A stretch of DNA of 64,000 nt. Origin: Pristiophorus japonicus (lineage: Eukaryota). Shown here piece after piece: positions 14,117 through 64,000 of the stretch. How positions within the stretch are numbered: position 1 is the stretch's first letter; each line of letters starts with the position of its first letter. The stretch is from assembly GCF_044704955.1 (NCBI RefSeq), contig NW_027251257.1, positions 992,001 to 1,056,000 of the forward strand, written 5' to 3'. Made by a program: the position numbers and the translations under genes. The notes under the pieces were generated by a model. The model saw nothing but the letters and a program-made list of their open reading frames with translations, was not told the origin of the DNA and made no database searches.

Positions 14117-17100
14117 AGATTTGTGTACAACTCTTTTAATAGGAGACAAAATTAACCAATTAAGTCAAATGCCCCCCAATCTGGGGGACACTCCAAACAT
14201 TTTTCAACTGCCCTTTTTATTTTGACTTTTTTTGGGGGTTTTTTTTGTGATTTTTTTGGGGCAATAAAATCATAAATCTTTACTAGTGCCCCCTATAAAA
14301 GGGGAGGAGGACACTAAAAACCCGGCAATTAAAACAAATTAAACTTTAAAACATATAAAATCCAATTAAAATTCGGTTGCCGGGGATAACAATGCACTCC
14401 AGTCCCTCCGCCGCCCACCTCTCGCGGAAGGCCGCAAGCATACCGGTGGACACCGCGTGCTCCATCTCTAAGGACACCCTGGACCGGATGGAGGCGTGGA
14501 AGAGAGGCAGGTAGTCAGGCTGAACGATCACCTCGACCGGCTGATGGCACCCTTGGCCGTGACCTGGAGCAGTCCGATGAGAAGGCCCTCGGACCTACCC
14601 GCTCCCCTCCGCACAGGGTGTCCAAAGATCAGGAGTGTGGGACTGAAGTGCAGTCAGAATTTCAGGAGCAGCCCCTTTAAATATTGGAACAGGGGCTGCA
14701 ACCTCGTACATTCAATAAAAACATGGAACACGGACTCTTCCAGACCGCAGAAATTGCAGATGGCCTGGGAGCCCGTGAACCGGCTTAAAAATTTGTTGCA
14801 CAGGACTGCTCCATGCACCACCCTCCAGGCCCAGTCCCCGATAAATAATGGGAGGAGATTTGTGTACAACTCTTTTTTAGGGGGAGACAAAATAAACATT
14901 AAATCAACTGCCCCCCGATCTGGGGGACACTCCAGACACTTATACCTGACCTCTTTTTTTTGTGTATTTTTTTCCTGTTGTGATTTTTTTGGGTGGCATT
15001 AAAATCATATAATTTACAAGTGCCCCCTATAAAAGGGGAGGGGGACATTAAAACCGGCAATTAAAACAAATTAAACTGTAAAATAAATAAAATCAAATTA
15101 AAATTTGGTTGCCGGGGGTTAGAATGCACTCCAGTCCCTCCGGCGCCCACCTCTTGCGGAAGGCTGCGAGCGTACTGGTGGACACCGCGTGCTCCATCTC
15201 TAAGGAAACCCTGGCCCGGATGTAGGCGCGGAAAAGAGGCAGGTAGTCAGGCTGAACGACCCCCTCGACTGCCCGCTGCCTGGACCGGCTGATGGCACCC
15301 TTGGCCATGCCCAGGAGCAGTCCTACGAGGAGGCTCTCGGACCTATCCGCTCACCTCCGCCCAGGGTGCCCAAAGATCAGAAGTGTGGGACTGAAATGCA
15401 TCCAGAATTTCAGGAGCAGCCCCCTTAAATAATAAAACAGGGGCTGCAACCTCGTGCATTCAATAAAAACATGGAACACGGACTCTTCCAGACTGCAGAA
15501 ATTACAGGTTGCCTGGGAGCCCGTGAACCGGCTTAAAAATTTGTTGCATAGGACTGCTCCATGCACCACCCTCCAGGCCAAGTCCCCAATAAATAATGGG
15601 AGGAGATTTGTGTACAACTCTTTCTGGGGGGTGACAAATTAACATTAGATCGAGTGCCCCCCGATCTGGGGGACACTCCAGACACTTATAAATGCCCTTT
15701 TATTTTGTGTTTTTTTTTCCTGTTGTGATTTTTTGGGGGGCATTAAAATCATATAATTTACAAGTGCCCCCTATAAAAGGGGAGCGGGACATTAAAACCG
15801 GCAATTAAAACAAATTAAACTGTAAAATAAATAAAATCAAATTAAAATTTGGTTGCCAGGGGTTATAATGCACTCCAGTCCCTCCGGTGCCCACCTCTCG
15901 CGGAAGGCCGTAAGCGTACCGGTGGACACCGCGTGCTCCATCTCTAAGGAAACCCTGGCCCGGATGTAGGCGAGGAAAAGAGGCAGGCAGTCAGGCTGAA
16001 CAACCCCCTCGACCGCCCGCTGCCTGGACCAGCTGATGGCACCCTTGGCCATGCCCAGGAGCAGTCCTACGAGGAGGCCCTCGGACCTACCCGCTCCCCT
16101 CCGCACAGGGTGGCCAAAGATCAGGAGTGTGGGACTGAAGTGCAGCCAGAATTTCAGGAGCAGCCCCTTTAAATAATAAAACAGGGGCTGCAACCTCGTG
16201 CATTCAATAAAAACATGGAACACGGACTCTTCCAGACCGCAGAAATTACAGGTTGCCTGGGAGCCCGTGAACCGGCTTAAAAATTTGTTGCATAGGACTG
16301 TTCCGTGCACCACCCTCCAGGCCAAGTCCCCGATAAATAATGGGAGGAGATTTGTGTACAACTCTTTTTGCGGGGAGACAAATTTACATTAGATCGAGTG
16401 CCCCCCGATCTGGGGGACACTCCAGACACTTATAACTGCCATTTTTTTTTGGTTGTTTTTTTAAAAACTTTTTTTTGTTTTTTTTTGTGATTTTTTTTTG
16501 GCATTAAAATTATAAATTTTACAAGTGCCCACTATAAAAGGGGAGGGGGACACTAAAAACCCGGCAATTAAAACAAATTAACCCTTAAAACATATAAAGT
16601 CAAATTAAAATTTGGTTGCCAGGGGTAACAATGCACCCCAGTCCCTCCGGTGCCCAGCTCTCGTGGAAGGTCGTGAGCGTACCAGTAGACACCTCATGCT
16701 CCATCTCTAAGGACACCCTGGACCGGATGTAGGCGCTGAAGAGAGGCAGGCAGTCAGGCTGAACGACCCCCTCGACCGCCCGCTGCCTGGACCGGCTGAT
16801 GGCACCCTTGGCCGTGCTCAGGAGCAGTCCTACGTGGAGGCCCTCGGACCTACCCGCTCCCCTCCGCACAGGGTGCCCAAAGATCAGGAGTGTGGGACTG
16901 AAGTGCAGCCAGAATTTCAGGAGCAGCCCCTTCAAATAATGGAACAGGGGCTGCAACCTTGTGCATTCAATAAAAACATGGAACACGGACTCTTCCAGAC
17001 CGCAGAAATTGCAGGCGGCCTGGGAGCCCGTGAACCAGCTTAAAAATTTGTTGCACGGGACTGCTCCGTGCACCACCCTCCAGGCCAAGTCCCCGATAAA

Positions 17101-17838
17101 TAGTGGGAGGAGATTTGTGTACAACTCTTTTTGAGTAAACAAATCATTATTTCAAGTGCTCCCCGATCTGGGGCACAGTACAAACATTTCACAAGGCCCC
17201 TTTTTTTTTTGTGCACTAAAGTCATAGTTTCTTTTTTCCAAGTGCCCCCTTTAAAAGGGGAGGGTGACACTAAAAACACCGGCAATTAAAACAAATAAAC
17301 TTTAAAACATAAAATCAAATTAAAATTTGGTTGCCGGGCGTGATGATGCACTCCAGTCCCTCCGGTGCCCACCTCTCGCGGAAGGCCGCGAGCGTACCGG
17401 TGGACACCGCGTGCTCCATCTCCAAGGACACCCTGGACCGGATGTAAGAGCGGAAGAGAGGCAGGCAGTCAGGCTGAACGACCCCCTCGACCGCCCGCTG
17501 CCTGGACCGGCTGATGGCACCCTTGGCCGTGCCCAGGAGCAGTCCTACAAGGATGCCCTCGGATCTACCCGCTCCCCTCCGCACAGGGTGCCCGAAGATC
17601 AGGAGTGCGGGACTGAAGTGCAGCCAGAAATTGAGGAGCAGCCCCTTTAAATAATAAAAGAGGGGCTGCAACCTCGTGCATTCAATAAAAACATGGAACA
17701 CGGACTCTTCCAGACCGCAGAAATTGCAGGCGGCCTGGGAGCCCGTGAACCGGCTTAAAAAGTTGTTGCACGGGACTGCTCCGTGCACCACCCTCCAGGC
17801 CAAGTCCCCGATAAATAATGGGAGGAGATTTGTGTACA
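14117..17838 (-). mobile_element. Five tandem 5'-truncated Tx1/L1-group non-LTR retrotransposon 3' ends (about 715-765 bp each)
   Basis: Each unit encodes GDLAWRVVHGAV...CNFCGLEESVFHVFIEC (RT-associated CCHC finger) plus a 3' UTR; units are separated by the identical 13-mer AGATTTGTGTACA at 14117, 14856, 15604, 16348, 17111, 17826. Confidence 0.85.
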
Positions 17839-19114
17839 GACAGGTTCCATTCACAATAGGTGGTTGTAATTAGCTTTCTGTCTCTGCTCAGCGGGCAGGA
17901 AACAGCTGGTTGTTTTTCTGCACCGAAGCAGCAGATGTTTCCTGCAAGTTACATTGTGAGTTCTCGCCCCTCCCTGATGGTGATATTGTGGATTTCTGTG
18001 ACAAAATGTGTGGGAGAGATATGGACTGTGTGTGGGTGGGATCAACGTGGAAGTTAACTCTTCGACTATTGAATCAGTAAACAACATCCATCTGAAATAT
18101 ATTTCTGCTGTCATGACTTTAAAAACATTATGTTTCGTGTATGACATGCGCAGTACTGAATAAAATATAATTGGAGCAATGCAAAGCTTTTGATGTATCG
18201 ATTAATGAAGGACAATTCTCCTCTGGTTTCATGCCATCTTCTATTACAATCCAGCAGACGGCAATGGAAGCTGTGCTGGTATCACATACACATAGAGAAC
18301 TACAGTTACAAAGAACGTAATAACCCATATAACAGTTCTTGGTCCCTTTGATAATTTATATTTGACTGCATGAGCTGCAGTCTGCCGAGTTACAGTCCCA
18401 GTGATGGAGCCTCTGACCGGGAATTCCAGTTACTGAGGTTTTGGTCAAATGCCATTGACAGCCTTTATATTTAAAAGTAAAACACCCTCTGGTACAACTG
18501 TGAGAGATGTGCACTTGGCATCAGAACATCTGGCCACAAGTGGATTAAGTTCAGCACCAAACCAACCTGCACGATGGCAACACTCAATTAAAGCATTTAT
18601 TATAATGTTTTCCCTTTCTGGTGCAAATTAAAAATGTTACCTCAAACCAATAATATCCCAAAGCTACGAATGTAATTTCTCCTTTAATCGGTTCACACTG
18701 ATCGACACTGTTTAATCTGCAGTGTTGAGGAAATTTCCATGGTCGGTGGGACAGTAATGTAATTGCGATTAGAAAGCGAGGCAGCGTGATTGAATCCTCA
18801 CCCAGATAACTTCGGGCGGACTGTGCGGTCTCCTCACAATTATACAGATCGATGTAGATCTTCACTTTTAACATTTAGAATTGCTCAGCGTGAAATAAAG
18901 TAACAATCTCCACACGGGTGAACTGAGATCCAGTGCCCGATTTGGGCCAGGGACGATTGTATTAAGTGTGGAGCTGCACAGACGCGATGGACGCTATCTG
19001 ATAAAATATAATGTTGTTCCCAAACTTAGCTTTCCCTGCTGTATAACCGGCAAGAATATCATCAACTCGTGTGTCCTTTTCTCTTCCATCCCACAAGCAG
19101 TTGCCGATCAGAAA

Positions 19115-19780: not shown

Positions 19781-19826
19781 ATGGGACTTGCCCCGTGCCT
19801 CTGTTTGTTTCTGGCTTGCTTCACCT
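19781..19826 (+). CDS. IGHV: Ig heavy-chain leader exon (MGLAPCLCLFLACFT)
   Basis: ATG at 19781, hydrophobic peptide, phase-1 donor GTGAGT at 19827 in frame with the V exon. Confidence 0.92.
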
Positions 19827-19948: not shown

Positions 19949-20251
19949 ATGTCCGGTCCGATATTGTGCTGACCCAGTCGGCTTCTGTGTCGAGGAAGCT
20001 CGGAGAATCTCACAAACTGTCCTGTTCAGTGAACGGGTTCAATCTGGACAGCCACCACGTGCACTGGTTTAAACAAGTTCCCGGGAAGGGGCTGGAGTGG
20101 CTGCTTGCTTACAGAAATCCGTCGGATACCAAACTTTACGCGCCTGGAGTCGAAGGTCGGATCATCCCTTCAAGAACATCTTCCACAACCTACATCGAGA
20201 TCAAGAACCTGAGAACCGAAGACTCCGCCATGTATTACTGTGCAAGACGGG
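19949..20251 (+). CDS. IGHV: Ig heavy-chain V exon, open reading frame
   Basis: Acceptor CAG 19946-48; (Y)VRS-DIVLTQ...LSC...HWFKQVPGKGLEWL...EDSAMYYCARR with both conserved Cys and Trp. Confidence 0.95.
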
Positions 20252-20290
20252 CACAGCGACCTGAACACGTCCTGGGCTCGTACAGAAACT
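20252..20290 (+). promoter_or_regulatory. 23-RSS of VH
   Basis: CACAGCG (20252-58) + 23 nt + ACAGAAACT (20282-90). Confidence 0.93.
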
Positions 20291-20649: not shown

Positions 20650-20677
20650 AGTATTTGTGCGGGTCCCTGTCACTGTG
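20650..20677 (-). promoter_or_regulatory. 12-RSS 5' of the J segment
   Basis: AGTATTTGT (20650-58) + 12 nt GCGGGTCCCTGT + CACTGTG (20671-77). Confidence 0.88.
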
Positions 20678-20730
20678 GTACAGCTATCTCGACGACTGGG
20701 GACAAGGCACCATGGTGACAGTGACTACAG
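20678..20730 (+). CDS. IGHJ: JH segment, possibly germline-joined DJ (YSYLDDWGQGTMVTVTT)
   Basis: WGQG motif; phase-1 donor GTAAGA at 20731 in frame with Cmu1. Confidence 0.95.
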
Positions 20731-24139: not shown

Positions 24140-25030
24140 TGTTAGACTGTAGAAGGAGCTTTAATTAGTTTCTAACCCGTGTTATACCTGCCCCGGGACT
24201 GCCTGATGGGACAGTGTAGAGGGAGCTTTACTCTGTATCTAACCCGTGCTATACCTGCCCCGGGAGTGCCTGATGGGACAGTGTAGAGGCAACTTTACTC
24301 TGTATTTAACCCGTGCTGTACCTGCATTTGGTCAGTTTGATGGGACTATTTAGAGGGAGGTTTACCCTGTATCTAATCCGTGCTGTACCTGCTCTGGGTC
24401 AGTTTGATGAGACAGTGTAGAGGGAGCTTTACTCTGTATTTTACCAGTGCTGCAAGTGCCCTGGGTCAGTGTGTTGGGACAGTGTAGAGCGAGCTTTACT
24501 CTGTATCTAACCGGAGTAACCTGCCCTCGGAGTGTTTGAAGGGGCAGAGTAGAGGGAGATTTACTTTGTATTTAACCCATGCTGTACCTACCCTCGAAGT
24601 GTTTGATGAGACAGTGTAGAGGGAGCTTTACACTGTATTTAACCCTGGGACTCTGGGAGTGTTTGATGGGATAGTGAAAAGGGAGAATTTATTTTGTATC
24701 TAACCCGTGTTGTACCTGCCCTGGGTCAGTCTGATTATGCAATGTATAAGGAGCTTAACTCTGTATTGAACTCGTGCTGGAACTGTCCCGTGACTCTTTG
24801 ATACGACAGTGTAGAGGGAAAATGTACTCTATATCTAACTCGTGTTCTATCTGCCCTGGTAGGACAGGGTACATGGAGCTCTGCTCTGTATTTATCTAGT
24901 ACGGTACATTATCTGGACTGTTTGACACTGTAGTATTGACATGGCTTTTCTCGGAATCAATTCCTTGATACACCTGACCATACAGTGCAGAGGGAACTTT
25001 ACTCTATATTATTTGTAATATAACAGACCT
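24140..25030 (+). repeat. 67-bp minisatellite in the J-C intron
   Basis: Unit GGGACAGTGTAGAGGGAGCTTTACTCTGTATCTAACCCGTGCTGTACCTGCCCTGGGAGTGTTTGAT; period 24208 to 24275. Confidence 0.92.
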
Positions 25031-28434: not shown

Positions 28435-28734
28435 CGACACCATCTCCTCCCAAACTCTACGCCCTGCTCTCCTCCTGTGAACAACCCAACACTGGCGGCC
28501 CCGTCACCTACGGCTGCTTGGCGATGGACTACTCCCCGGAAATCACCAGCTTTTCCTGGAGGAAAGAAAAAGAGCCGATCAGCATTGGATTGAAGACCTA
28601 TCTGTCAGTGCTCAACAAGAAGGGAGCCTACACATGGAGCAGCCAGTTAACCATCAACGAGTCAGAGGTGGGGAGCAGCGCAATCTACTGCGAGGTTCGA
28701 CGAGGTGGGGCGGTCTGGGATGTAAAAATGTTAG
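28435..28734 (+). CDS. IGHM: IgM Cmu1 exon
   Basis: Acceptor CAG 28432-34; [17 protein letters not shown]...[16 protein letters not shown]...[22 protein letters not shown]; donor GTGAGT 28735; matches shark Cmu1. Confidence 0.95.
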
Positions 28735-29815: not shown

Positions 29816-30127
29816 ATCGTGTGGTACATCATCCAACTGTTATCCTTACCCTGAGTTCCAGGGAAGAAATCACCAGCAGCAGATCTGCAACCGCCGTGTG
29901 TTCAATCATCGATTTCTGGCCAAAGTCACTGACCATGAATTGGCTGAAGAATGCACATCTTGTGCATTCGGGAATCGTCACTTCTCCCGTCTATGAGGTG
30001 AACGGGAACTTCTCGGCGACCAGTCGGCTGACATTCCCCGCCGGGGAATGGTTCGCCCGCTCGGTCTATACCTGCCAGGTCTCTCATCAAGGATTCATCC
30101 AAAGCCGAAACATCACCAGACCTCCGG
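29816..30127 (+). CDS. IGHM: IgM Cmu2 exon
   Basis: Acceptor CAG 29813-15; [28 protein letters not shown]...W...YTCQVSHQ; donor GTAAG 30128. Confidence 0.95.
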
Positions 30128-32381: not shown

Positions 32382-32690
32382 ATGATTCCTCCTGCAACGA
32401 ACCAAAAATCACTCTTCCGCAGCCGTCTCTAGAACAGGTCTTACTGGAGGCGACAGTGACCTTAACCTGCATCGTGTCTAATGCTCCTTATGGAGTCACC
32501 ATGACCTGGATGCACGAAAAGAAGAATTTGCAATCAGGGATTGCCGGCCAACCGGGAGAGGCTCCCGACAGCGTGATCAGCAAATTAGACATCTCGACAC
32601 AAGACTGGCTGAGTGGGAATGTGTTTGACTGCGTGGTGAGCCATCGGGATATGCCGACTCCTATCAGAGGTTCCATCCGCAAGGAAACGG
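32382..32690 (+). CDS. IGHM: IgM Cmu3 exon
   Basis: Acceptor CAG 32379-81; [25 protein letters not shown]...[13 protein letters not shown]; donor GTGAG 32691. Confidence 0.95.
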
Positions 32691-33205: not shown

Positions 33206-33597
33206 GTAAAGATCCGCGGGAACCAGCCGTGTCTGTCCTCCTGCCCTCGGCAGAAGAAGTCTCCGCTCAGAGGTTGGTCACCCTCACCTGCTTAGTGAGA
33301 GCTTTCTCTCCCCGAGAGATCTTCGTCAAGTGGACCGTCAATGGCAAGCCAGTGGATACCGGCAACTACACGAACACCGAGGTAATGGCGGAGAACGGCA
33401 GCAGCTATTTCTTCACGTACAGCCTGTTATCCATTGCAGCCGAGGAGTGGGCCAGCGGTGCTTCTTACTCCTGTGTGGTGGGACATGAAGCCATCCCCTT
33501 GAAGATCACGAACAGAACGGTCAATAAATCCAGCGGTAAACCCAGTTTTGTGAACATTTCTCTTGTTCTGATGGACACCGTCAATTCTTGTCAATGA
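33206..33597 (+). CDS. IGHM: IgM Cmu4 exon with secretory tailpiece
   Basis: Acceptor CAG 33203-05; [18 protein letters not shown]...YSCVVGHEA; internal donor G|GTAAA at 33536; tailpiece [20 protein letters not shown] with N-glycan site and penultimate Cys. Confidence 0.96.
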
Positions 33598-33625: not shown

Positions 33626-33641
33626 AATAAAAAACAATAAA
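33626..33641 (+). terminator. Secretory-form polyadenylation signals
   Basis: AATAAA at 33626 and 33636. Confidence 0.8.
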
Positions 33642-34004: not shown

Positions 34005-34550
34005 TACCCCACCAGAGAGAGGGGAAAGGTCAATTGTTAACCCACGGTACTCCCCACTGCCCCACCAGAGAGAGTGGAAAGGGCAATTGTTAACCCCCTG
34101 TACCCCCCACTGTCCTACCAAAGAGAGGGGAAAGGGCAATTGTTCACCCCCTGTACCCCCCACTGCCCCACCAGAGAGAGGGGAAAGATCCATTGTTAAC
34201 CCCCTGTACTCCCCACTGCCCCACCAGAGAGAGGGGAAAGGTCCATTGGTAACCCCCTGTACCCCCCACTGGCCCACCAGAGACAGGGGAAAGGTCAATT
34301 GTTAACCCCCTGTACCCCCTACTGCCCCACCAGAGAGAGGGGATAGAGCAATTGTTAACCCACTGTACTTCCACTGCCCCAACAGAGAGAGTGGAACGGT
34401 CAATTGTTGACTTACTGTCCCGACCACTGCCCCAGCACAGTGAGGGGAAAGGTCAATTGTTAATCCACTATACCCGACTTCCACACAAGCGAGAGGGCAA
34501 AGGCTAATTGTTAACCCACTGTACCTCTCAATTCCCACCAGGGAGAGAGA
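34005..34550. repeat. 53-bp minisatellite between the secretory poly(A) site and TM1
   Basis: caattgttaacccc...ccccactgccccaccagagagagggg recurs at 34031, 34084, 34137 and onward. Confidence 0.9.
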
Positions 34551-34619: not shown

Positions 34620-35310
34620 ACAGAGCGGGGAAGAATGCGTGTAAAAGTGAGTGTGTGTGTTTTTGTGGAAGTTCACACTTACACATAAACACACAGAGAC
34701 TTACATGTAAACACACACATTGACACACTGATAGAGGATATTACACATACCCAGAATATAATACACAATGTTATTGTCAGAACCAGTAATTAGTATTCTC
34801 TGAAAGTTTGAACGACAGCAAAAATATACACATACACCCTTACGCAAAACATACACAAACACGCGCATTATCACACACACACACACACACTTACACTCGC
34901 ATAAACACACAAATCAACACAAACCAACTACCACATAACACACACACACATTTACATGTGAATACACACAGTTACACATAAACACACATATGCTTACCCC
35001 GAAACATACACAACACTTACACATAACCATATACACACACATTAAAAACACACACATGGACGTACTTACACAAAACACATATTTAAACATAAACACACAC
35101 AATTACATATAAACACACAAGACTTACTCATAAACATACAAAAACTTACAGAAATACACACACATAAATATAGATACATAGAATGACACATTAACACACA
35201 TAACCTTACATATCAACATTACATTAACACATATCAACACACAAACACAGACAAAACCAAAACAAGAGATCGCCATACACATATACGCAAACACTAAAAT
35301 ACACAAAATA
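34620..35310. repeat. CA-rich low-complexity tract
   Basis: Imperfect (CA)n/ACATAAAC runs. Confidence 0.85.
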
Positions 35311-35890
35311 CGTCAGGCTATAGGCGAATATCGCATTAAAATACACTCTTTGAACAGTCTCCCAACGATTGCATTAAATAAATCATTTCCGATATCATAA
35401 TATCTGACATTCCTCTATTCTGATGCCGCACACACACTGAATCAACGTTCTTAGTTGGAAACTGATACAAGTTAATTATGTTCAGAACATTGACCGTCAC
35501 AAATTAATCATGATTATAACTCACATCCGATATCTCACCCTGTCCCATTGACAATCTCCAAATAATTAGCTATCGAAAACTATTGTTAAAATAATCGATA
35601 TCATTCAGTAAGCCTCCCTCAATATTACATCATACTATTCCCGAAAGCGTGTGACATTGAAGGAAAACTGTCATATTTTCCAACACAGGATCATAAAGGA
35701 AGAGCGACTGTGGAAGTAGGAACACAGATAGAGTGCTGAGAGTGATTAACTTAACACAGGACATACATTCTACTTTAAATTAGAAAACAAACTAATATCT
35801 TAAGGAAAAGAAAAGACAATATATAATAATAATATGATATCTTGGATTAACAAGCGATCTGAATATATTTCCTCCTCTACATTCCCGCAG

Positions 35891-36018
35891 ATTCCTCAGA
35901 TCACAGCTGGAATGAAGAGTATGAGGACCAGAGCGGCAACATCTGGACAACCGCTTCCACATTCACCATCCTGTTTTTCCTGAGCATGTTCTAAAGCGCT
36001 GGAGTCACTCTGGTGAAG
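35891..36018 (+). CDS. IGHM: IgM TM1 exon with premature stop TAA at 35992-35994
   Basis: Acceptor CAG 35888-90; DSSDHSWNEEYEDQSGNIWTTASTFTILFFLSMF*SAGVTLVK; donor GT 36019. Confidence 0.92.
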
Positions 36019-36156
36019 GTCAGAAGATTCAATGCATTCGCCTCGAGCTGACTGAAGCGGTTTGACAAATCTCTAAACGTTTCATTGATAAAAACCCTGA
36101 GATAAATTCCCTAAACCACTAAATCCCTGCATCAATCTTTTATCCCTCTTTTACAG

Positions 36157-36165
36157 ATCAAGTGA
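36157..36165 (+). CDS. IGHM: IgM TM2 exon (IK*)
   Basis: Polypyrimidine tract + CAG at 36154-56, ATC AAG TGA; AATAAA at 36229. Confidence 0.85.
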   Translation: MK

Positions 36166-36919
36166 TTGACTGAATTTCGGCCGCTGTGGATTTTCCTCAT
36201 CTGGTTATTAACATCACTGTGTCCTGAAAATAAACTGTGTCCTCTTGGTGATTCCTGGAGTCAATTGCCTTCAGTTATTTCGTCTCTCTGTTGAAATGTG
36301 TGAGACAATTGTGGCTATAATGTAAATGTATCTCGGAGTTTCATAATTGTTTGAATATCTCATGTGTAAATAAGTCACTGTTCTCATTCATGATTCACAA
36401 TTATTCCCTTTCCTTTATGTTAAACATCTGTTTCTCTCTCCCTGATGTCTGTTACAATTGTACAGAAAGCTGGCAGCTCAGACCACCTGTGTTCTAGACT
36501 CAATGTGATGCTCATTTGTTATTTTCAATTTGTGTTAACTTGTTAAAAACTTCTTTGTAATTTGTTCTCTGTGAAATTGTTGATAAATCTGGAATGACAA
36601 ATGGAATATATTGGACTTTGCTGAGTTCCTTTCTCCAAGGCTCCTTCACACAGTTATATTTCCCTATCACACTTCGTTTTATTTCCCTGACAATTGCTCT
36701 TCACCCGTCCTGTCTGGGTTGTGTTTGAATCCAAGGCCTTTCAGTGGAGGAGCCACTACGCCACCTAGTGTCTCATCAGAGTAATGACAATTTCCCCCTG
36801 CCTATTTTCGTCATGCTCCGGAGGCGAAATGACTGCACAGTGACCAGATGCACCATGCGGTCTCTTCTAATATTATGGTCTTTCACGTGCCAGGTTATGT
36901 TAAAGAGCAGTACTCTGAT

Positions 36920-37490
36920 CCATCACAGTCTGATTCAGTATTTTACGTGCCAGAGTAAATCTCCCTCTACACTGTCCCATCAAACACTCCCAGGGCAGGT
37001 ACAGCACGGGATAGCTACAGAGTAACGCTCCATCTACACTGTCCCAGCAAACACTCCCTGGGCAGGTCCAGCACGGGGTTAGATACAGAGTAAAGCTCCC
37101 TCTACAATGTCCCAGCAAACACTCCCAGGGCATGTACAGCACGGAGTTAGATACACAGTAAAGCTCCCTCTACAATGTCCCAGAAAATTCTCCCAGGGCA
37201 GGTACAACACGGGCTAGATACAGAGTAACGCTCCATCTACATTGTCCCATCAAACACTCCTAGAGTAGGTACAGCACAGGGTTAGATACAGATTAAAGCT
37301 CCCTCTACACTGTCCTATCAAACACTTCCAGGGCAGGTACAGCACAGGGTTAGATACAGAGTAAAGCTCCCTCTGCACTGTCCTATCAAACACTTCCAGG
37401 GCAGGTACAGCACGGGGTTAGATACAGAGGAAAGCTCCTTCTACACTGTCCCATCACAGACTCGAAGGGCAGGTACAGCACGGGTTAAAT
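36920..37490 (-). repeat. 67-bp minisatellite, inverted relative to 24140-25030
   Basis: Units atcaaacactcccagggcaggtacagcacggggttagatacagagtaaagctccctctacactgtccc. Confidence 0.92.
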
Positions 37491-37989
37491 ATCTGACACA
37501 GACACACCAGGGAGCAGAAAGTCTGGGAATTATTCCCAAAGCCTGGGGCCTATCTGACACACAGACACTCGCTCCAAGGTTTGTACTATACACACACAGA
37601 TAGCCAAAAAACAGACGAAAGGTGGAGATACTTTATTTGAGAGAGAGATGAGGGATCGCACGGCGTCTGCAGCTACATTAGTAGCCTTCTGTCCGGTGGA
37701 CATCAAAAGATACAGGTGATGTGATAGACGGGAAAAAGCACTTTCTGATGTAAGACCATTTTAGTTTTATTCTGACCAAGTGTACGAGTGGCGCCCTCTT
37801 GTCGGGGAGGGCACAAGTAGAATGTATGTTTTGTTTCCGAATCGCCTCTTTAAAGGTGACCCGTGTCCAAATGGCTCACAGAGACCGAGGAAATAAGTAG
37901 GCCCAGCACCGGGGTAACCACTTCCAGCCCTTCTCCATTCTGAGGATTATACATTAACTCTGACCCTCTGTGTCCTGTTTCCCGGACGA

Positions 37990-43629: not shown

Positions 43630-44040
43630 GGATATTTATGTATAAAATGGTTGTATAGTTAACGAGAGAAAAGCATTTATCGATGTCGACAGAGAGAGAG
43701 AGAGAGAGACGAGGTGGAAGGAAATGTAGCCCAGGTAGCTGTGGGAGTCAGAGGGCTTATAGTAAATGTTTGCCAATAGTCTATCCCCCGAAATGGAGAG
43801 AGAGAAGTCGAGGAAGGGAAGGGAAGGGAAGAGTCGGAGGGGGACCATGTGAAGGCGAAGGGATCATCCTCTCTGCATCTATCCTGTGAAGCTCCCTCAG
43901 AACCTGCCTCAGAATATATCCATGAAAGACTTGAAGATCGCAGACGGCGCCGGGTATTACTGCGCCCTGAGACCAACAGTGAATAAGGGGCATCTCGGGC
44001 CTGTTACAGAAACAGGGCACAGGTCAGCATCGGGAGTGGG
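43630..44040 (-). mobile_element. Penelope-like element RT fragment
   Basis: LPFLDFSLSISGDRLLANIYYKPSDSHSYLGY motif in ORF 43636..43848. Confidence 0.75.
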
Positions 44041-44741: not shown

Positions 44742-45174
44742 ATGTTCTCATTATGTTCCTTTCTGATAATAATGTTCATGCTGTCTGGTGAGTACATGTT
44801 TAAATGGTCAGTTTGTGTTTCATGGGTTATGTTTACACCCAGACTTATCACATATTCTGTATTTTGTTACAGGAATGAGTGGCAAAGAATCAGTGTCCCA
44901 GGATCCATCTGAATTATTGGTTACAGAAGGAAAGACATTAATACTGAGTTGCAATTACTCGGAAGCTGGTTCAACTCTGTTCTTGGAACATCCAGTATTC
45001 CGGGGAAACTCCGAGATATTTACTGAAGATATATAGTGTGGGGACAGTACAGCAGTCTCCAGATTTCCCAGACAGGTTCTCTGCTGTATTGCACAGGGAC
45101 AACAAAACGGTTCATATAACTATCACCGGAGCTCTTGTCTCCGACACTGCTGTGTATTTCTGTGCTATGAACCC
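44742..45174 (+). pseudogene. TCR alpha/delta-type V pseudogene A (leader 44742-44787, V exon 44873-45174)
   Basis: Leader MFSLCSFLIIMFMLS|GT; SVSQDPSELLVTEGKTLILSCNYS...+1 frameshift at about 44983...WNIQYSGETPRYLL...DTAVYFCAMNP. Confidence 0.88.
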
Positions 45175-45214
45175 CACACTGCTGCAGAGATATAGTGGAT
45201 CCCGTCCAAAATCC
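45175..45214 (+). promoter_or_regulatory. Degenerate 23(+1)-RSS of V-A
   Basis: CACACTG + 24 nt + CCAAAATCC. Confidence 0.7.
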
Positions 45215-50400: not shown

Positions 50401-52557
50401 CTCTGTCTGAGCATAAATACAGATCCCCGACGCACTGCAATGCCAAACAGGAAACAGCGGCAGCAATCTCTGCAATAACACAGGGCAGGCAAGGCGGGTG
50501 AGAGTGAGAGCAGCAAACGGAAGCTGTGGGCGGGGTTGCCACGGGCAGTGTTATCCCACATAGGATCCATCTGTGAGGACAGAATTCAATAATAATGTCC
50601 CTTCTGAAATGATATAATTCTGCCTCTCTGTAAGGGTTGTGCTATTTTCATATACGTTAAAAATTCTGGGCAAGCAGTCGAGCGATAGGAATTTCAGCAT
50701 TATATTCTTCAACAGTTAATGAAATCGTCAGCAGTGAAGTGGTTTATAACCAAGTGCTGACACGGGTGGTTGGAAACAACAAAACTGCAATTGATCCCGA
50801 ACTTCTAAAATTATTAAACTGTAATGGATTGCAAAACATTACTGAGCATAAATATAATCTAAAAAGTAATTTCACCTCAATTTATATTGAGAAAGCGTCA
50901 GTCAGCATTGGTTGATGTAAAGTGACTGGCGGTTGGAATCCGTGCTCTGTCAGCGCCACTTGGCCGGGAATAAAGCATCTCCTTTGAGCTGATGTCACAG
51001 AACACGGTTACTGTACGAGGTGTCCTTGGGTTTTCTCACTGTTGGCCTCAGTGCACAGTAGTACATGGCGCTGTCTGCGAGCTGCAGCTCAGTCAGGGTG
51101 ACAACAGCTAGAGTTTTTGACTTTTCAGAATGACAGAGAAACGGCTGTTAACTTCGTTCTTTCCAAAATAATGTATTCAAATTACGAGAGTGGGAGCCTT
51201 CTACTGGCTCTGACGGTAAAGCTCCAGGTAGTAGGTCGCTTGGGGGGTGGAATAGTTACAAATAATGCTCATTGAGGTACCTTCCAGATATTGGGCTTAT
51301 TTTGGCCATTGATCCACGGAGTCTCCAGAATTTAATTCTGCAGAAAACAATCGTGGTTACCCATGGAAACAGCGTAAAGCACAGACCACACGTTTCTCTT
51401 TATTTGAGAAAAATCTGTATCTCTTTGAGTATATACAGGGAGACAAAGATATACAAGCATCAGATTAATGGCTAGATATTGGATATTGATAGTTAGGCAG
51501 GTTAATAAACAGAGACATAGAGACAGACAGTCAGACAGATAGAGTGAGTGACACAGAGTGGCGGGCAGACAAGTTGATAGATTGTTGAGAGGTAATAAGA
51601 TGGATGGAGGGATAGACCTAGAGATCGATGAAAAGAAGACAGTTGTGTCAATAGTGGAATGGATAGACAGATACATGTGTAAATAAATAAACCTATCAAA
51701 TAACAAAGATGCCAGGCCCGAAATAACAAAAAGCCCAAACTCCATAATGGCCGCAGTCTCCCCACAATGGGACACCGCACTTCGCCCGCTGCCTCCTCTC
51801 AGTTGCAGATTTCGGAATGAAGGAAAGAATGTGAAGTGTTTCCGTCAGCAAACGGACTCCCCGTCATTTCCGGAATCAAACCCAGAGCCGGGTCTCAATG
51901 AGCTTGCCGGTGATTATTGTCGCTGTCTGTGTTCACCATCATTGCCCGCGGCACCGGCACACAGACTTCGTGTGCTGCTCTGCCTTGTCCCGGACATCTA
52001 AACATCCGATCCCGGGAATGGGTGAGGATTCTGTCTCTCCATTACGGGCCTCACCCACAATGGCACCAACACATCCCAGAAATGGTTGAAAGGGCAAAAA
52101 AGCTTCGATTGAAATGTATTCTTCAAAAGGATTCTCATTTAAGGGAGGTCAGAACGGGGAATACTCTGCCAGACACTGTTAGTGACGTAGACTCCATCAA
52201 TTATTATTTTATAAAGGAAGCATATTGAGGAATTATTTAATTATTACAGGGTGTAGGGAGCCTTTGTTGTGTTTTAAGATACTAACATTGATTGAGAATG
52301 AATTCTTGAAGCGTGCCTCCATTCTGTATTGTACAAGGCACGAAAAAATGGTTCAAACTATCTCGCGGTGTCCTGACAAACAAATCCACATTATTGCACC
52401 GAAAGTTTAAATCACATTCAGACAATGCCCACAAGAGGGGGCTGTGAAGCGACACTGCTGGCGATCAATTTGGCAGAATGTGTATTAAAAAGTTAGAGAG
52501 TACGTCATAAAATAGGGCTCAAATCAAGGTAAGGAGGGACCGTCGAACTGCAGCCCA

Positions 52558-52852: not shown

Positions 52853-53020
52853 GGCCCGGGGTGGGTAAACCTGAGATCAGCTTCTTTCGTTAGTTCAACA
52901 GAAAGAAGCCTCTGAGTTGGAATCTGCCTCCTTGTTAATTCTCCCGTATATAATATCTCTACCCTAGGAGCAACCCGTCCTCCGTGTGCAATGCTTTCAG
53001 CCTCCTTTCCATCTGATCCG

Positions 53021-53358
53021 ATGGCACTCCGGATTTACAGAGTTTCCCTGCTGATTTGCACTCTGATCTGCACGGATGTGAGCGGTGAAGATGAGGTGAT
53101 GCAGATCCCTCCATCGGTGGTTGTTAATGAAGAGGGAATCGTATCTATAAACTGCACCACGACAGCTGCTTTTACTGTCTTGCGCTGGTACAGACAGCTC
53201 TCGAATCAGACCCTCCAGCACCTGGTGCTGGCCACAAGCAGGGCCGATCAACATGGGAGGATCACTGCTTCAATCGGGGGGAGGAAATAAACGCAGTGTC
53301 CTGACTGTGAGAGACGCGCAAGTGACAGACACCGCCACCTAACTCTGCGCCGTGAACC
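53021..53358 (+). pseudogene. TCR alpha/delta-type V pseudogene C with leader fused to V (no intron)
   Basis: MALRIYRVSLLICTLICTDVSG-EDEVMQIPPSVVVNEEGIVSINC...WYRQ...; frameshift in the G-run at about 53276-81; DTAT*LCAVNP with TAA at 53340. Confidence 0.88.
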
Positions 53359-53397
53359 CACAGTGTAACAAACAGGTGGAGAGTCCGCACAGAAACC
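53359..53397 (+). promoter_or_regulatory. Near-consensus 23-RSS of V-C
   Basis: CACAGTG + 23 nt + ACAGAAACC. Confidence 0.93.
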
Positions 53398-58834: not shown

Positions 58835-59320
58835 ATGCGGAACCGTCTCACACCGCTCCTCACCATTGTATCAGTTCTCAGTAAGTATTCCATTCCCAGT
58901 GCAAATCCATTCTCCTCCTGAATGTTGCAACCCAGATGTGATAATTGGTTAAATGATCCTGATTATTATGTTGATTGTGATGATGATGATGACTATTACT
59001 GTTATTTTATGTTGGACTGGAGCCACCAAGACACAGTGGAACAGACGATCCCTGAATTGATGGTTGAAGAGGAAAGTAATGTCACGCTAACCTGCACCTT
59101 GAAAACAAGCACTTCTGTCCCTTATGTACACTGGTACAGTCAGCATCACGGGCAGGCGGCCACAGTTCGTATTTTATCTCTATGCTGGGATAATCAACAT
59201 AAACCTTGACTTCAATGACCAATTCTTTTGTAGGTTCAATAAAACTACCAAGATTGGCGAGCTAACGATCGGTAAAGCCCTGATCTCCAATACTGCTGTG
59301 TATTTCTGTGCCATGAGCCC
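58835..59320 (+). pseudogene. TCR alpha/delta-type V pseudogene D (leader 58835-58880, V exon about 59016-59320)
   Basis: Leader MRNRLTPLLTIVSVL|GTAAGT; acceptor mutated (TGG at 59013-15); DTVEQTIPELMVEEESNVTLTC...HWYSQ; frameshift at about 59159; NTAVYFCAMSP; heptamer mutated to CAGACTG + 24 nt + ACAAAAATC. Confidence 0.88.
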
Positions 59321-59531
59321 CAGACTGGAGCAGCGATATCATGGATGCCGTACAAAAATCCACACTGAGAGTTCCAGGTAGTGCTCACTAGAGGGCGATC
59401 ACACCCCGATAACCAGAAGCAATCAATCAGTCTCCACAGTGAGAGCCACAGGGATCTTCTAAATAGACCGGCAAAATAGAATTCTCAACATGAAAAGGTG
59501 AAGTCCACTGGCCGAATTATAATATTTAATA

Positions 59532-61780: not shown

Positions 61781-64000
61781 TGTATTACTGTATGCACACA
61801 ACCTAGGTGCACACCTTGACCACAAGTGGTGAACTTGTGGGAGACACTCCTTATCTGATCTCCCAGGTATATAAATGGAGGTCTCATATACGGTCATCAC
61901 TTGTGGAGTGCTGTGAATAAAGAGTCGAGGTCACAGCGTGACCTAGTCCCCAGAATGTGCCTCGTGTGGTTTCATGCTGTAGAGTAAGGACTTTACATTG
62001 GTGACGAGAAAAGGGAATTCATGACCCAAGAGAATGGCCACTGGTAGTGCAGAGGAAAGGTACTGTGTTGGGGAGGACTGGGACGATTTTGTCAAGAGGC
62101 TTCAGCAAAGCTTCATTATGAAACAATGGCTGGGGGATGCAGCGGCCTATAAGCGAAAGGCTCATCTCTTGACCAGCTGCGGACCAAAGACTTACACCCT
62201 CATGAAGGACTTACTTGCACCCGAAAAGCTATTGGACAAAATCTTTGAAGAACTTACAAAACTGGTCGGGGAGCACCTCACACCAGCGAGTAGCATACAC
62301 ATGGCCCGACACAGATTCTACACCCACCGACGTCGTGAAGGACAGAGCATACCGGATTTCGTAGCGGACCTCTGGTGTTTGGCCAGCCTCTGTAAGATCA
62401 CAGACGCCTGCAGGGGGAAGATGCTAAGGAACTTCTTTATCGAGGGCATCGATCATGTGGGAATTTTCTGCAAATTAATTGAGAGCAAGGATTTGACCTT
62501 GGAAGCGGCGGCGTTGTTAGCTGAAACTTTCATGGCGGGGGAGGAAGAGACGAAAATAATATACGCGCACAATTCTGCCTCTAGCGCGGCGATGGGTCAG
62601 GGAGTCAACATCATCAATGCGACTCAGAGCCCCGCAGGCAGGCAGGGGCAGTCCGACATTCCCCAGGCAACAACAGACCCCAGAGTAGGACTCCAACAGA
62701 GACAATGGCAGGCTGAACGGACATTCACATCATCACAATGGACAATGCGGTCCGAGATGGGGTCATTGACACCCTCTAATAGGGTACTTAAGAGCAGTCA
62801 AAGGGACAGTCACCGCGGAATTCCTTGCCATAGTCGCTTTGATCCCAACAATGGAAACTTTAACTCATGCTGGAGGTGTGAAGGAAAACACTCAGCCAGA
62901 TCTTGCAGATTTCAATAGTTTGTCTGCGGAAATTGCAATCTCAGTGGCCATTTAGCTCGAATGTGCAGGAAGCCTGCAACCAGACTAATATATGAGGCAC
63001 ATGGACCAGAAGAGGGTCCTTTGAGGCAGGATGACTTTTGGGGCAAATCGATGGACGCTGAGGTTCAGCGGGTCCATGCAGCGAACAGTTCATACACCAA
63101 AATGCCACCAATGATGATGAGAGTTATATTAAACGGCATCCCAGTACACATGGAGCTGGACACTGGGGCCAGCCAGTCACTCATAGGCGTTCAGCAATTT
63201 GAGAAGCTATCGCCACTTAAAGCCAGTAGACCCAAATTAGCACATATTGAGACACAATTACGGACTTTCACTAAAGAAATCATTCCGGTGCTAGGCAGTG
63301 CAATGTTGGCTGTCATACACAACGGGTTAGTGAATCGGCTGCTGCTCTGGATTGTACCAGGTAATGGTCCCGCGCTGTTGGGGAGGAGCTGGTTAGCCGA
63401 GATGAACTGGAAATGGGAGGATGTTCACACAATGTCATCTGTGGAGCGAAGTTCGTGCTCACAAGTCCTACAACAATTGGATTAACTATTCCAACCTGCG
63501 TCGGGACTTTCAAAGGCACTAAAGTAGTGATACACATCACCCCGGACGCCAGGTCAGTGCACCACAAAGCCAGAGCGGTGCCGTTTGTGACGCGGGAAAA
63601 GATCGAGAGCGAATTGGAAAGGCTGTTGAGAGAGGGCATCATCTCGCCTGTTGAATTCAGCAACTGGGCGAGCCCCATCGTTCCCGTCCTAAAAGCGGAT
63701 GGCTCTGTCAAGATTTGTGGCGACTACAAGGCCACCATTAATCGGGTGTCCCTGCAAGATCAATACCCGCTCCCGAGAGTGGAGTACCTTTTCACCACGC
63801 TGGCAGGCGTCAAGCTGTTCACCAAGTTGGACCTCACCTCAGCCTATATAACCCAGGAACTGGCCGACGAATCTAAACTACTGACCACCATCACCACGCA
63901 CAAGGGACTGTTCGTTTATAACAGGTGCCCGTTTAGCATGTGACTAGCAGCCGCGATTTTTCAAAGAAACATGGAAAGCGTGCTTAAATCCATTCCTGGA
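61781..64000 (+). mobile_element. Ty3/Gypsy LTR retrotransposon (5' LTR about 61781/61789-61997, PBS, gag, protease, RT start)
   Basis: TGTA...TACA LTR with TATATAAA and AATAAA; PBS TGGTGACGAG at 61999; gag 62034.. with zinc knuckles (one stop); protease LDTGAS; RT WASPIVPV...GDYK...KLDL; runs off the window. Confidence 0.92.

Follow-up and report, generated by a model that had tools for sequence, protein, structure and literature searches.

Structure of the IgM minicluster

The window, that is, the whole stretch of 64,000 nucleotides of Pristiophorus japonicus DNA that was analyzed, carries one of the many IgM miniclusters of sharks, arranged as L-V, pre-joined D-J, Cmu1 to Cmu4, tailpiece, and TM1-TM2. 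With one V, a D/J element, and four Cmu exons, the gene has its best likeness to shark IgM, and its Cmu4 shares 75 to 89% identity with named IgM chains of sharks and with the nearest unnamed relative of these. The leader exon (19781-19826, +) starts with an ATG at 19781, encodes a signal peptide that is intact by inspection, and ends at a phase-1 GT donor. The VH exon follows at 19949-20251 (+), and the constant region consists of Cmu1 (28435-28734, +), Cmu2 (29816-30127, +), Cmu3 (32382-32690, +), and Cmu4 with the secretory tailpiece (33206-33597, +), all four Cmu being open C1-set domains. Cmu4 itself extends to 33535, with an internal GT donor at 33536, while the tailpiece ends in NSCQ and a stop codon, so that its penultimate residue is Cys; two secretory-form AATAAA signals (33626-33641, +) begin at 33626 and 33636. 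TM1 (35891-36018, +) is flanked by an AG acceptor at 35889-35890 and a GT donor at 36019, both intact. The coding part of TM2 (36157-36165, +) reads ATC AAG TGA (Ile-Lys-stop), and the membrane-form AATAAA lies at 36229-36234 (+).

All introns have GT..AG ends, and every element that the initial annotation had listed as intact (Cmu1 to Cmu4, the tailpiece, the poly(A) signals, and the TM splice sites) was found. The secretory form, which it had considered possible, is without a disabling lesion, and the membrane form alone is hit. Compared to the elasmobranch IgM minicluster (V-D1-D2-J-Cmu1-4-sec-TM), the gene shares the exon order, the four Cmu, the tailpiece, and the two TM exons, as well as the V-to-D spacing and a neighborhood of TCR-alpha/delta V genes, but differs by a stop in TM1 and by a D(D)J that is joined while V is still open.

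V segment and state of rearrangement

The VH exon is open and unrearranged and belongs to a divergent shark VH family. It is 76 to 80% identical to P0057, P0058, and P0173, with which it forms a divergent clade (support, 100/99), versus 36 to 47% for the remaining 10 VH of cartilaginous-fish type that were compared. We take it to resemble the nurse shark Group 1 and horn shark monotypic VH family; none of the matches to the window V is named Group 1 or monotypic, and only a distinct VH clade is resolved. The V branch is short (0.054), and V is better conserved than TM1. The stretches of CDR1 and CDR2 (SHHVH and YRNPSDT) are identical to those of P0058 despite differing frameworks and an overall identity of 78%, a hint that germline specificity may be under selection. 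The J reads Asp before WGQG, where relatives have Tyr.

Directly after V lies its own 23-spacer RSS (20252-20290, +; CACAGCG-23-ACAGAAACT); when read through, its spacer shares 13 of 14 residues with the catshark counterpart. A 12-spacer RSS facing V (20650-20677, -; CACAGTG-12-ACAAATACT) begins 359 bp beyond the RSS of V, and a D remnant fused to JH (20678-20730, +; ..YLDDWGQGTMVTVTT) comes directly after it, 426 bp after V. Relative to the RSS consensus, the 23-RSS has three mismatches and the 12-RSS has two, both in its nonamer. The A-tract positions of the RSS nonamer are important, and the 12-RSS nonamer deviates inside this tract.

The usual V-to-D1 spacing is 250 to 500 bp according to PMC5192425. 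Since the spacing in the window gene lies within this range, D and J are apparently pre-joined, as D(D)J, beside an open V, so that a single RAG step would be enough to complete the gene, whether the join is germline or somatic; V-DDJ is also described as a somatic intermediate in sharks (PMC2435157). The germline forms given in shark reviews are VD-J, VD-DJ, and VDJ, whereas the window gene combines an open V with a joined D(D)J. The RSS 3' of V is V's own, which led us to reject a VD join.

A germline-joined IgM is known as a secreted antibody from nurse shark IgM1gj. Unlike the window gene, which is partly joined, IgM1gj has a complete VDJ join and no Cmu2; here, Cmu2 is intact beside an open V. 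The two V share 47% identity, and the window gene is not a member of the IgM1gj subclass.

A stop codon in the first membrane exon

In the window sequence, a TAA at 35992-35994 (+) interrupts TM1, which translates as ...SGNIWTTASTFTILFFLSMF*SAGVTLVK (asterisk, stop). The TAA stands where all 13 TM-bearing proteins of our protein set (n = 187) have Tyr, and none of these 13 ends at this position. The TM Tyr-Ser has a role in CD79 binding, and when aligned, the mIgM chains of mouse and human receptor structures have Tyr-Ser at the stop position. The stop in place of a conserved Tyr was thus correctly recognized in the initial annotation, but the "YS" motif that it took to be conserved is variable among cartilaginous fish, the residue after the Tyr being Ser in only 9 of the 13 proteins. 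A representative search with TM1 gave 13 matches, two of which covered the full query and were shark TM forms with Tyr (P0011 and P0180), while the remaining 11 matched the acidic stretch only. A homologue search with TM1 as the query gave no matches.

The stop removes the Tyr together with the last nine residues of TM1 and the tail encoded by TM2, and the membrane form would end in ...FFLSMF; a complete TM helix with the conserved Tyr and a basic cytoplasmic tail is absent from the window gene. These losses leave no normal CD79-coupled receptor, in line with the earlier view that the gene cannot make a signaling BCR. The stop stands in a tight context (UAA-A), 24 nt from the last exon junction (TM1/TM2). 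This distance had been given correctly, and a stop less than 50 nt upstream of the last junction is expected to escape NMD.

Rare changes of TM1 were found on either side of the TAA. The window gene has Thr where 13/13 relatives have Ile, inside the supposed GPI tail, and Gly where 13/13 have Ala or Thr. It also has Ser at about 35905-35906, where the mapped contigs of four runs, at all depth, have Ile. Rescue of the membrane form by an alternative TM exon was rejected, since no second TM exon was found in the window, and so was rescue by alternative splicing, the three GT upstream of the stop in TM1 being poor donors or helix-deleting.

Sister copies and sequencing reads

Sequencing contigs of four of the seven runs were mapped to 35260-36940 at 88% likeness. 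X1, X3, and X4 are DNA runs of one sample, possibly the source of the window, while X5, whose type is absent from the record, is RNA by inference. The search for runs listed no RNA data set with the stretch, a result that carries no information on expression. Each DNA run gave 108 to 129 mapped contigs, 57 to 65 of them at 90 to 95% likeness and 6 to 15 at 99+%, with pile-ups of up to 8 to 9 contigs at a single place. Other parts of the mapped interval gave contigs of low depth identical to the window (X1 record 3, 124 nt; X3 record 16, 109 nt). The many contigs at 90 to 95% beside these low-depth identical pieces indicate that several related copies exist.

The TAA was seen in no contig among the matches listed for 35260-36940 in the four runs. 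The stop thus holds for the window sequence but is unconfirmed in reads, where the initial annotation had wished to see it. In two contigs (X4 record 21 and X5 record 27), the alignment breaks off precisely at 35994, and this clipping implies that both would carry another letter at the third base of the stop. Since 8 of 117 and 5 of 95 of their other letters, respectively, differ from the window, these contigs represent other copies. An X5 contig over TM1 differs at 6 letters. Its loose ends agree with the last letters of Cmu4 and the first letters of TM2 but, being 12 to 15 letters long, fall below the 31-letter bridging bar of the tool; they hint that a sister copy gives a spliced membrane transcript. 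None of the 14 contigs mapped from X5 reached 99+% likeness, contigs showing presence only.

Genomic surroundings

The window gene sits in an IgH-TCR-alpha/delta complex. Five broken V relics with RSS-like ends lie at 43.8 to 59.4 kb in both orientations. The one at 53020-53397 (+), a pseudogene with a frameshift near 53285, an in-frame TAA, and a 23-RSS at 53359, has its best match in TCR-alpha chains. In this relic, too, a TAA stands at a Tyr, the one just before the second Cys. The other four (43800-44010, +; 44750-45205, +; 50990-51150, -; 58950-59360, +) appear TCR-alpha/delta-like by motif and context; among them, V-set family matches were found at E values of 2e-7, 3e-4, and, weakly, 0.027, one relic giving none. 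No TCR D, J, or C was recognized in the window by tblastn with Ig queries only. Shark IgM clusters, some labeled "pseudo?", are listed as interleaved with TCR-alpha/delta V genes in PMC12227049 (Table S1).

Upstream of the IgM promoter, at least four similar retroelement-like C-terminal ORF fragments occupy the minus strand at 14470-17950, and a fragmented LTR retrotransposon with gag-, protease-, and reverse-transcriptase-like ORFs (by inspection) lies at the window end (62025-63940). Long minisatellite arrays occur at 1295-2815, 24148-24859, 34007-34547, and 36951-37491, with periods of about 21, 67, 53, and 68 bp, respectively; the one with 53-bp units separates the secretory poly(A) site from TM1.

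Constraint on V, Cmu, and TM1

In the C domains, the window gene has singleton residues at 22 of 269 conserved columns, 11 of them radical, compared to 11 of 265 (4 radical) in P0004, its nearest full-length relative, and 16 of 268 in Triakis. More singletons were counted in P0019 (33) and in the skate-like P0022 (67), and 2 to 8 in each of eight panel proteins that have close kin in the panel. The excess of odd residues in the window gene is mild and non-significant. Invariant C columns are broken at 4 of 123 positions, while 11 of 12 panel proteins have 0 to 9 such breaks, and a relative-rate test was significant with only two of five outgroups (p = 0.002, 0.0003, 0.05, 0.15, and 0.59). The sequence changes in TM1 suggest decay of this exon; for V and Cmu, the data fall short of showing it, and the normal invariant columns and the short V branch speak against it.

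The C domains are 75 to 89% identical to those of P0004, which has a conventional V, versus 65 to 80% to those of P0173, which has the same V family. This mismatch between C domains and V family suggests that either V was swapped or C has undergone concerted evolution. The closest grouping of Cmu4 is with the Pristiophorus gene model P0036, itself degenerate-looking. P0014, a protein filed under Aeromonas veronii, shares 82% identity with shark Cmu4 and probably represents host contamination.

The Scyliorhinus torazame counterpart (scyTo_0014239/0014240, adjacent locus tags; V, P0057; C, P0013) has the same divergent VH family, a conserved V RSS spacer, and the Cmu2 start of the window gene. 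Its TM is intact with the Tyr, whereas the window gene has the stop; the stop state is therefore not ancient. A rearranged secreted chain with the V type of the window is represented by P0173, which belongs to the cluster of P0013.

A receptor-dead cluster, probably in early decay

The best reading of these data, to which we give moderate confidence, is that of an IgM minicluster rendered receptor-dead by a one-base Tyr-to-stop change and now in early decay. Incipient pseudogenization, one of the options raised by the initial annotation, is also the best supported of them. After one V-to-DJ join, the membrane mRNA would escape NMD and give a product ending in a 17-residue hydrophobic stub, unable to pair with CD79a/b. 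The stub would signal neither survival nor exclusion, and selection of the B cell would proceed via another cluster. Since sister copies supply the receptor, the simplest outcome is that constraint is lost, and selection on the window copy would lapse in TM1 first and most visibly. Some secreted mu chain might still be made, unselected. The gene had also been proposed to act outside clonal selection; this would hold only in part: since V still needs a RAG join to D-J, any product would be a passenger in a cell selected via another cluster. As an alternative entry, the VDJ of another cluster could be placed on the window Cmu by inter-cluster switching.

Early decay is favored by the redundancy of sister copies, the intact TM of the catshark counterpart, the rare TM1 changes, the C-domain singletons, and the five V relics. 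It is opposed by the lack of a second hard lesion, the normal invariant columns, the significance of only two of five relative-rate tests, and the constrained V; weighed together, these points leave it reasonably probable. It is established in the mouse that both exclusion and the progression of pre-B cells depend on the membrane exon and on Ig-alpha/beta (PMC2196397, PMC8873125). For the nurse shark, PMC2435157 reports rearrangement of one to three clusters in each B cell, a process that probably ends once a receptor is expressed. Damaged and partly pre-joined shark IgM clusters are already known, and three nurse-shark IgM pseudogenes have been published. In the literature covered, outside which key shark papers lie, we found neither a shark IgM with a TM stop nor a natural GPI-linked IgM.

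Alternative readings

The gene could instead be a secretory-only cluster that is maintained, either as a natural muMT-like allele or as a Cmu recipient in inter-cluster switching, which we regard as the main rival but rather unlikely. Completed by a one-step join and giving no exclusion signal, such a cluster would provide a second antibody, its germline CDR1 and CDR2 conserved, from plasma cells selected via another cluster. The mouse muMT allele is similar in that its secretory exons are intact, its membrane form is dead, and no exclusion signal is expected, but it is engineered and lies in a single translocon locus, whereas the lesion of the window gene is natural and affects one of many clusters. 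Maintenance would be in keeping with the retained tailpiece, Cys residues, and invariant columns, and with the conservation of V and its RSS. Moreover, the TAA is the sole hard lesion of the gene and is TM-specific. TM1 and TM2 together hold 17 of the 235 single-base nonsense routes of the gene (7%), the 2 of the Tyr codon included, and a lone lesion in this 7% mildly favors a secretory path still in use. Loss of the membrane exon in mice leads to allelic inclusion (PMC8873125), and shark V regions expressed with C regions of other clusters, as reported in PMC4279169, would suit a switch recipient. However, C-domain singletons are twofold over those of P0004, the catshark TM speaks against an ancient stop state, and the 12-RSS nonamer deviates inside the A-tract. 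In addition, nurse-shark pseudogenes showed no rearrangement by Southern blot in PMC2435157.

An assembly or sequencing error, with TAC or TAT as the true codon of an ordinary functional IgM gene, is improbable. Such an error would explain why no contig among the matches listed has the TAA, why two contigs differ at 35994, and why the gene bears no other hard lesion, but those two contigs represent other copies, the mapped interval includes low-depth contigs that are identical to the window at other places, the window is without N, and the TAA is a substitution amid several other copy-specific substitutions.

There is likewise only a slight chance that the open V and its 23-RSS are kept as a donor for trans-rearrangement to a TCR-delta D-J-C while the IgM C and TM decay, a reading that would be compatible with early decay. 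Trans-rearrangement of IgH V to TCR-delta is known in sharks and linked to the IgH-TCR-alpha/delta complex, TCR-alpha-like V relics lie nearby, and V is better conserved than TM1. Against a donor role, all five neighboring V segments are broken, the tblastn search with Ig queries recognized no TCR D, J, or C in the window, and the 12-RSS 359 bp away would be expected to compete.

The initial annotation had also likened the truncated end to a GPI signal. A selected GPI-anchored IgM would have its omega site at Ser35932 or at a neighboring Asp, Gly, or Asn and would be lipid-anchored, sheddable, and non-signaling. It would be co-expressed beside a true receptor, with no heavy-chain exclusion, repeating the TM-to-GPI switch of CEACAMs. 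Tail-less mammalian mIgM can be GPI-linked, as can IgD; the mammalian mIgM, however, kept its whole TM. The membrane mRNA, with its stop 24 nt from the junction, is expected to escape NMD. The likeness in layout stands, since the end fits by rule the PredGPI scheme, in which positions omega-1 to +2 hold small residues, +3 to +9 form the spacer, and the hydrophobic tail starts at +10 (PMC2571997): small omega residues lie 17 to 21 amino acids from the end, the spacer reads IWTTAST, and the tail is uncharged, with a mean Kyte-Doolittle value of 2.37 over the last 10 residues. GPI anchoring of the stub in a transfected cell is possible. In pig CEACAM60, a single T>A making a TAA in the TM exon gave a PI-PLC-releasable protein (PMC13212111), and similar TM-to-GPI events occurred repeatedly in primate CEACAMs (PMC2832619). 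Like the window gene, these GPI CEACAMs (pig CEACAM60, primate CEACAM5-8) are of the Ig superfamily, with a one-base TM-exon stop and a hydrophobic end; for them, in addition, a stop common across species, expression, and release by PI-PLC are documented. Nothing observed in the window gene points to selection for a GPI anchor. The omega, spacer, and hydrophobic features are those of the ancestral TM1 sequence, and a GPI-like end would result from 4 of the 17 ways in which a single base change makes a stop codon in the TM exons. The propeptide of 17 to 21 amino acids exceeds the required 16 but is short, cleavage usually taking place about 20 to 30 residues from the C terminus according to PMC2571997; the Ile-to-Thr change lowers the hydrophobicity of the tail, and none of the 13 TM-bearing proteins is truncated at the stop position. 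A selected GPI-anchored IgM is therefore the most improbable of the readings considered.

Significance

If the window gene is a decaying copy, it exemplifies the routine birth and death of clusters among shark IgM genes and has annotation value only. If the stub took a GPI anchor, surface antibodies would gain a new kind. That heavy-chain exclusion in sharks depends on membrane-receptor feedback is assumed rather than demonstrated in Malecek 2008. If the gene is still rearranged and its product secreted, it would be a natural muMT allele and would offer a direct test, in sharks, of exclusion via such feedback.
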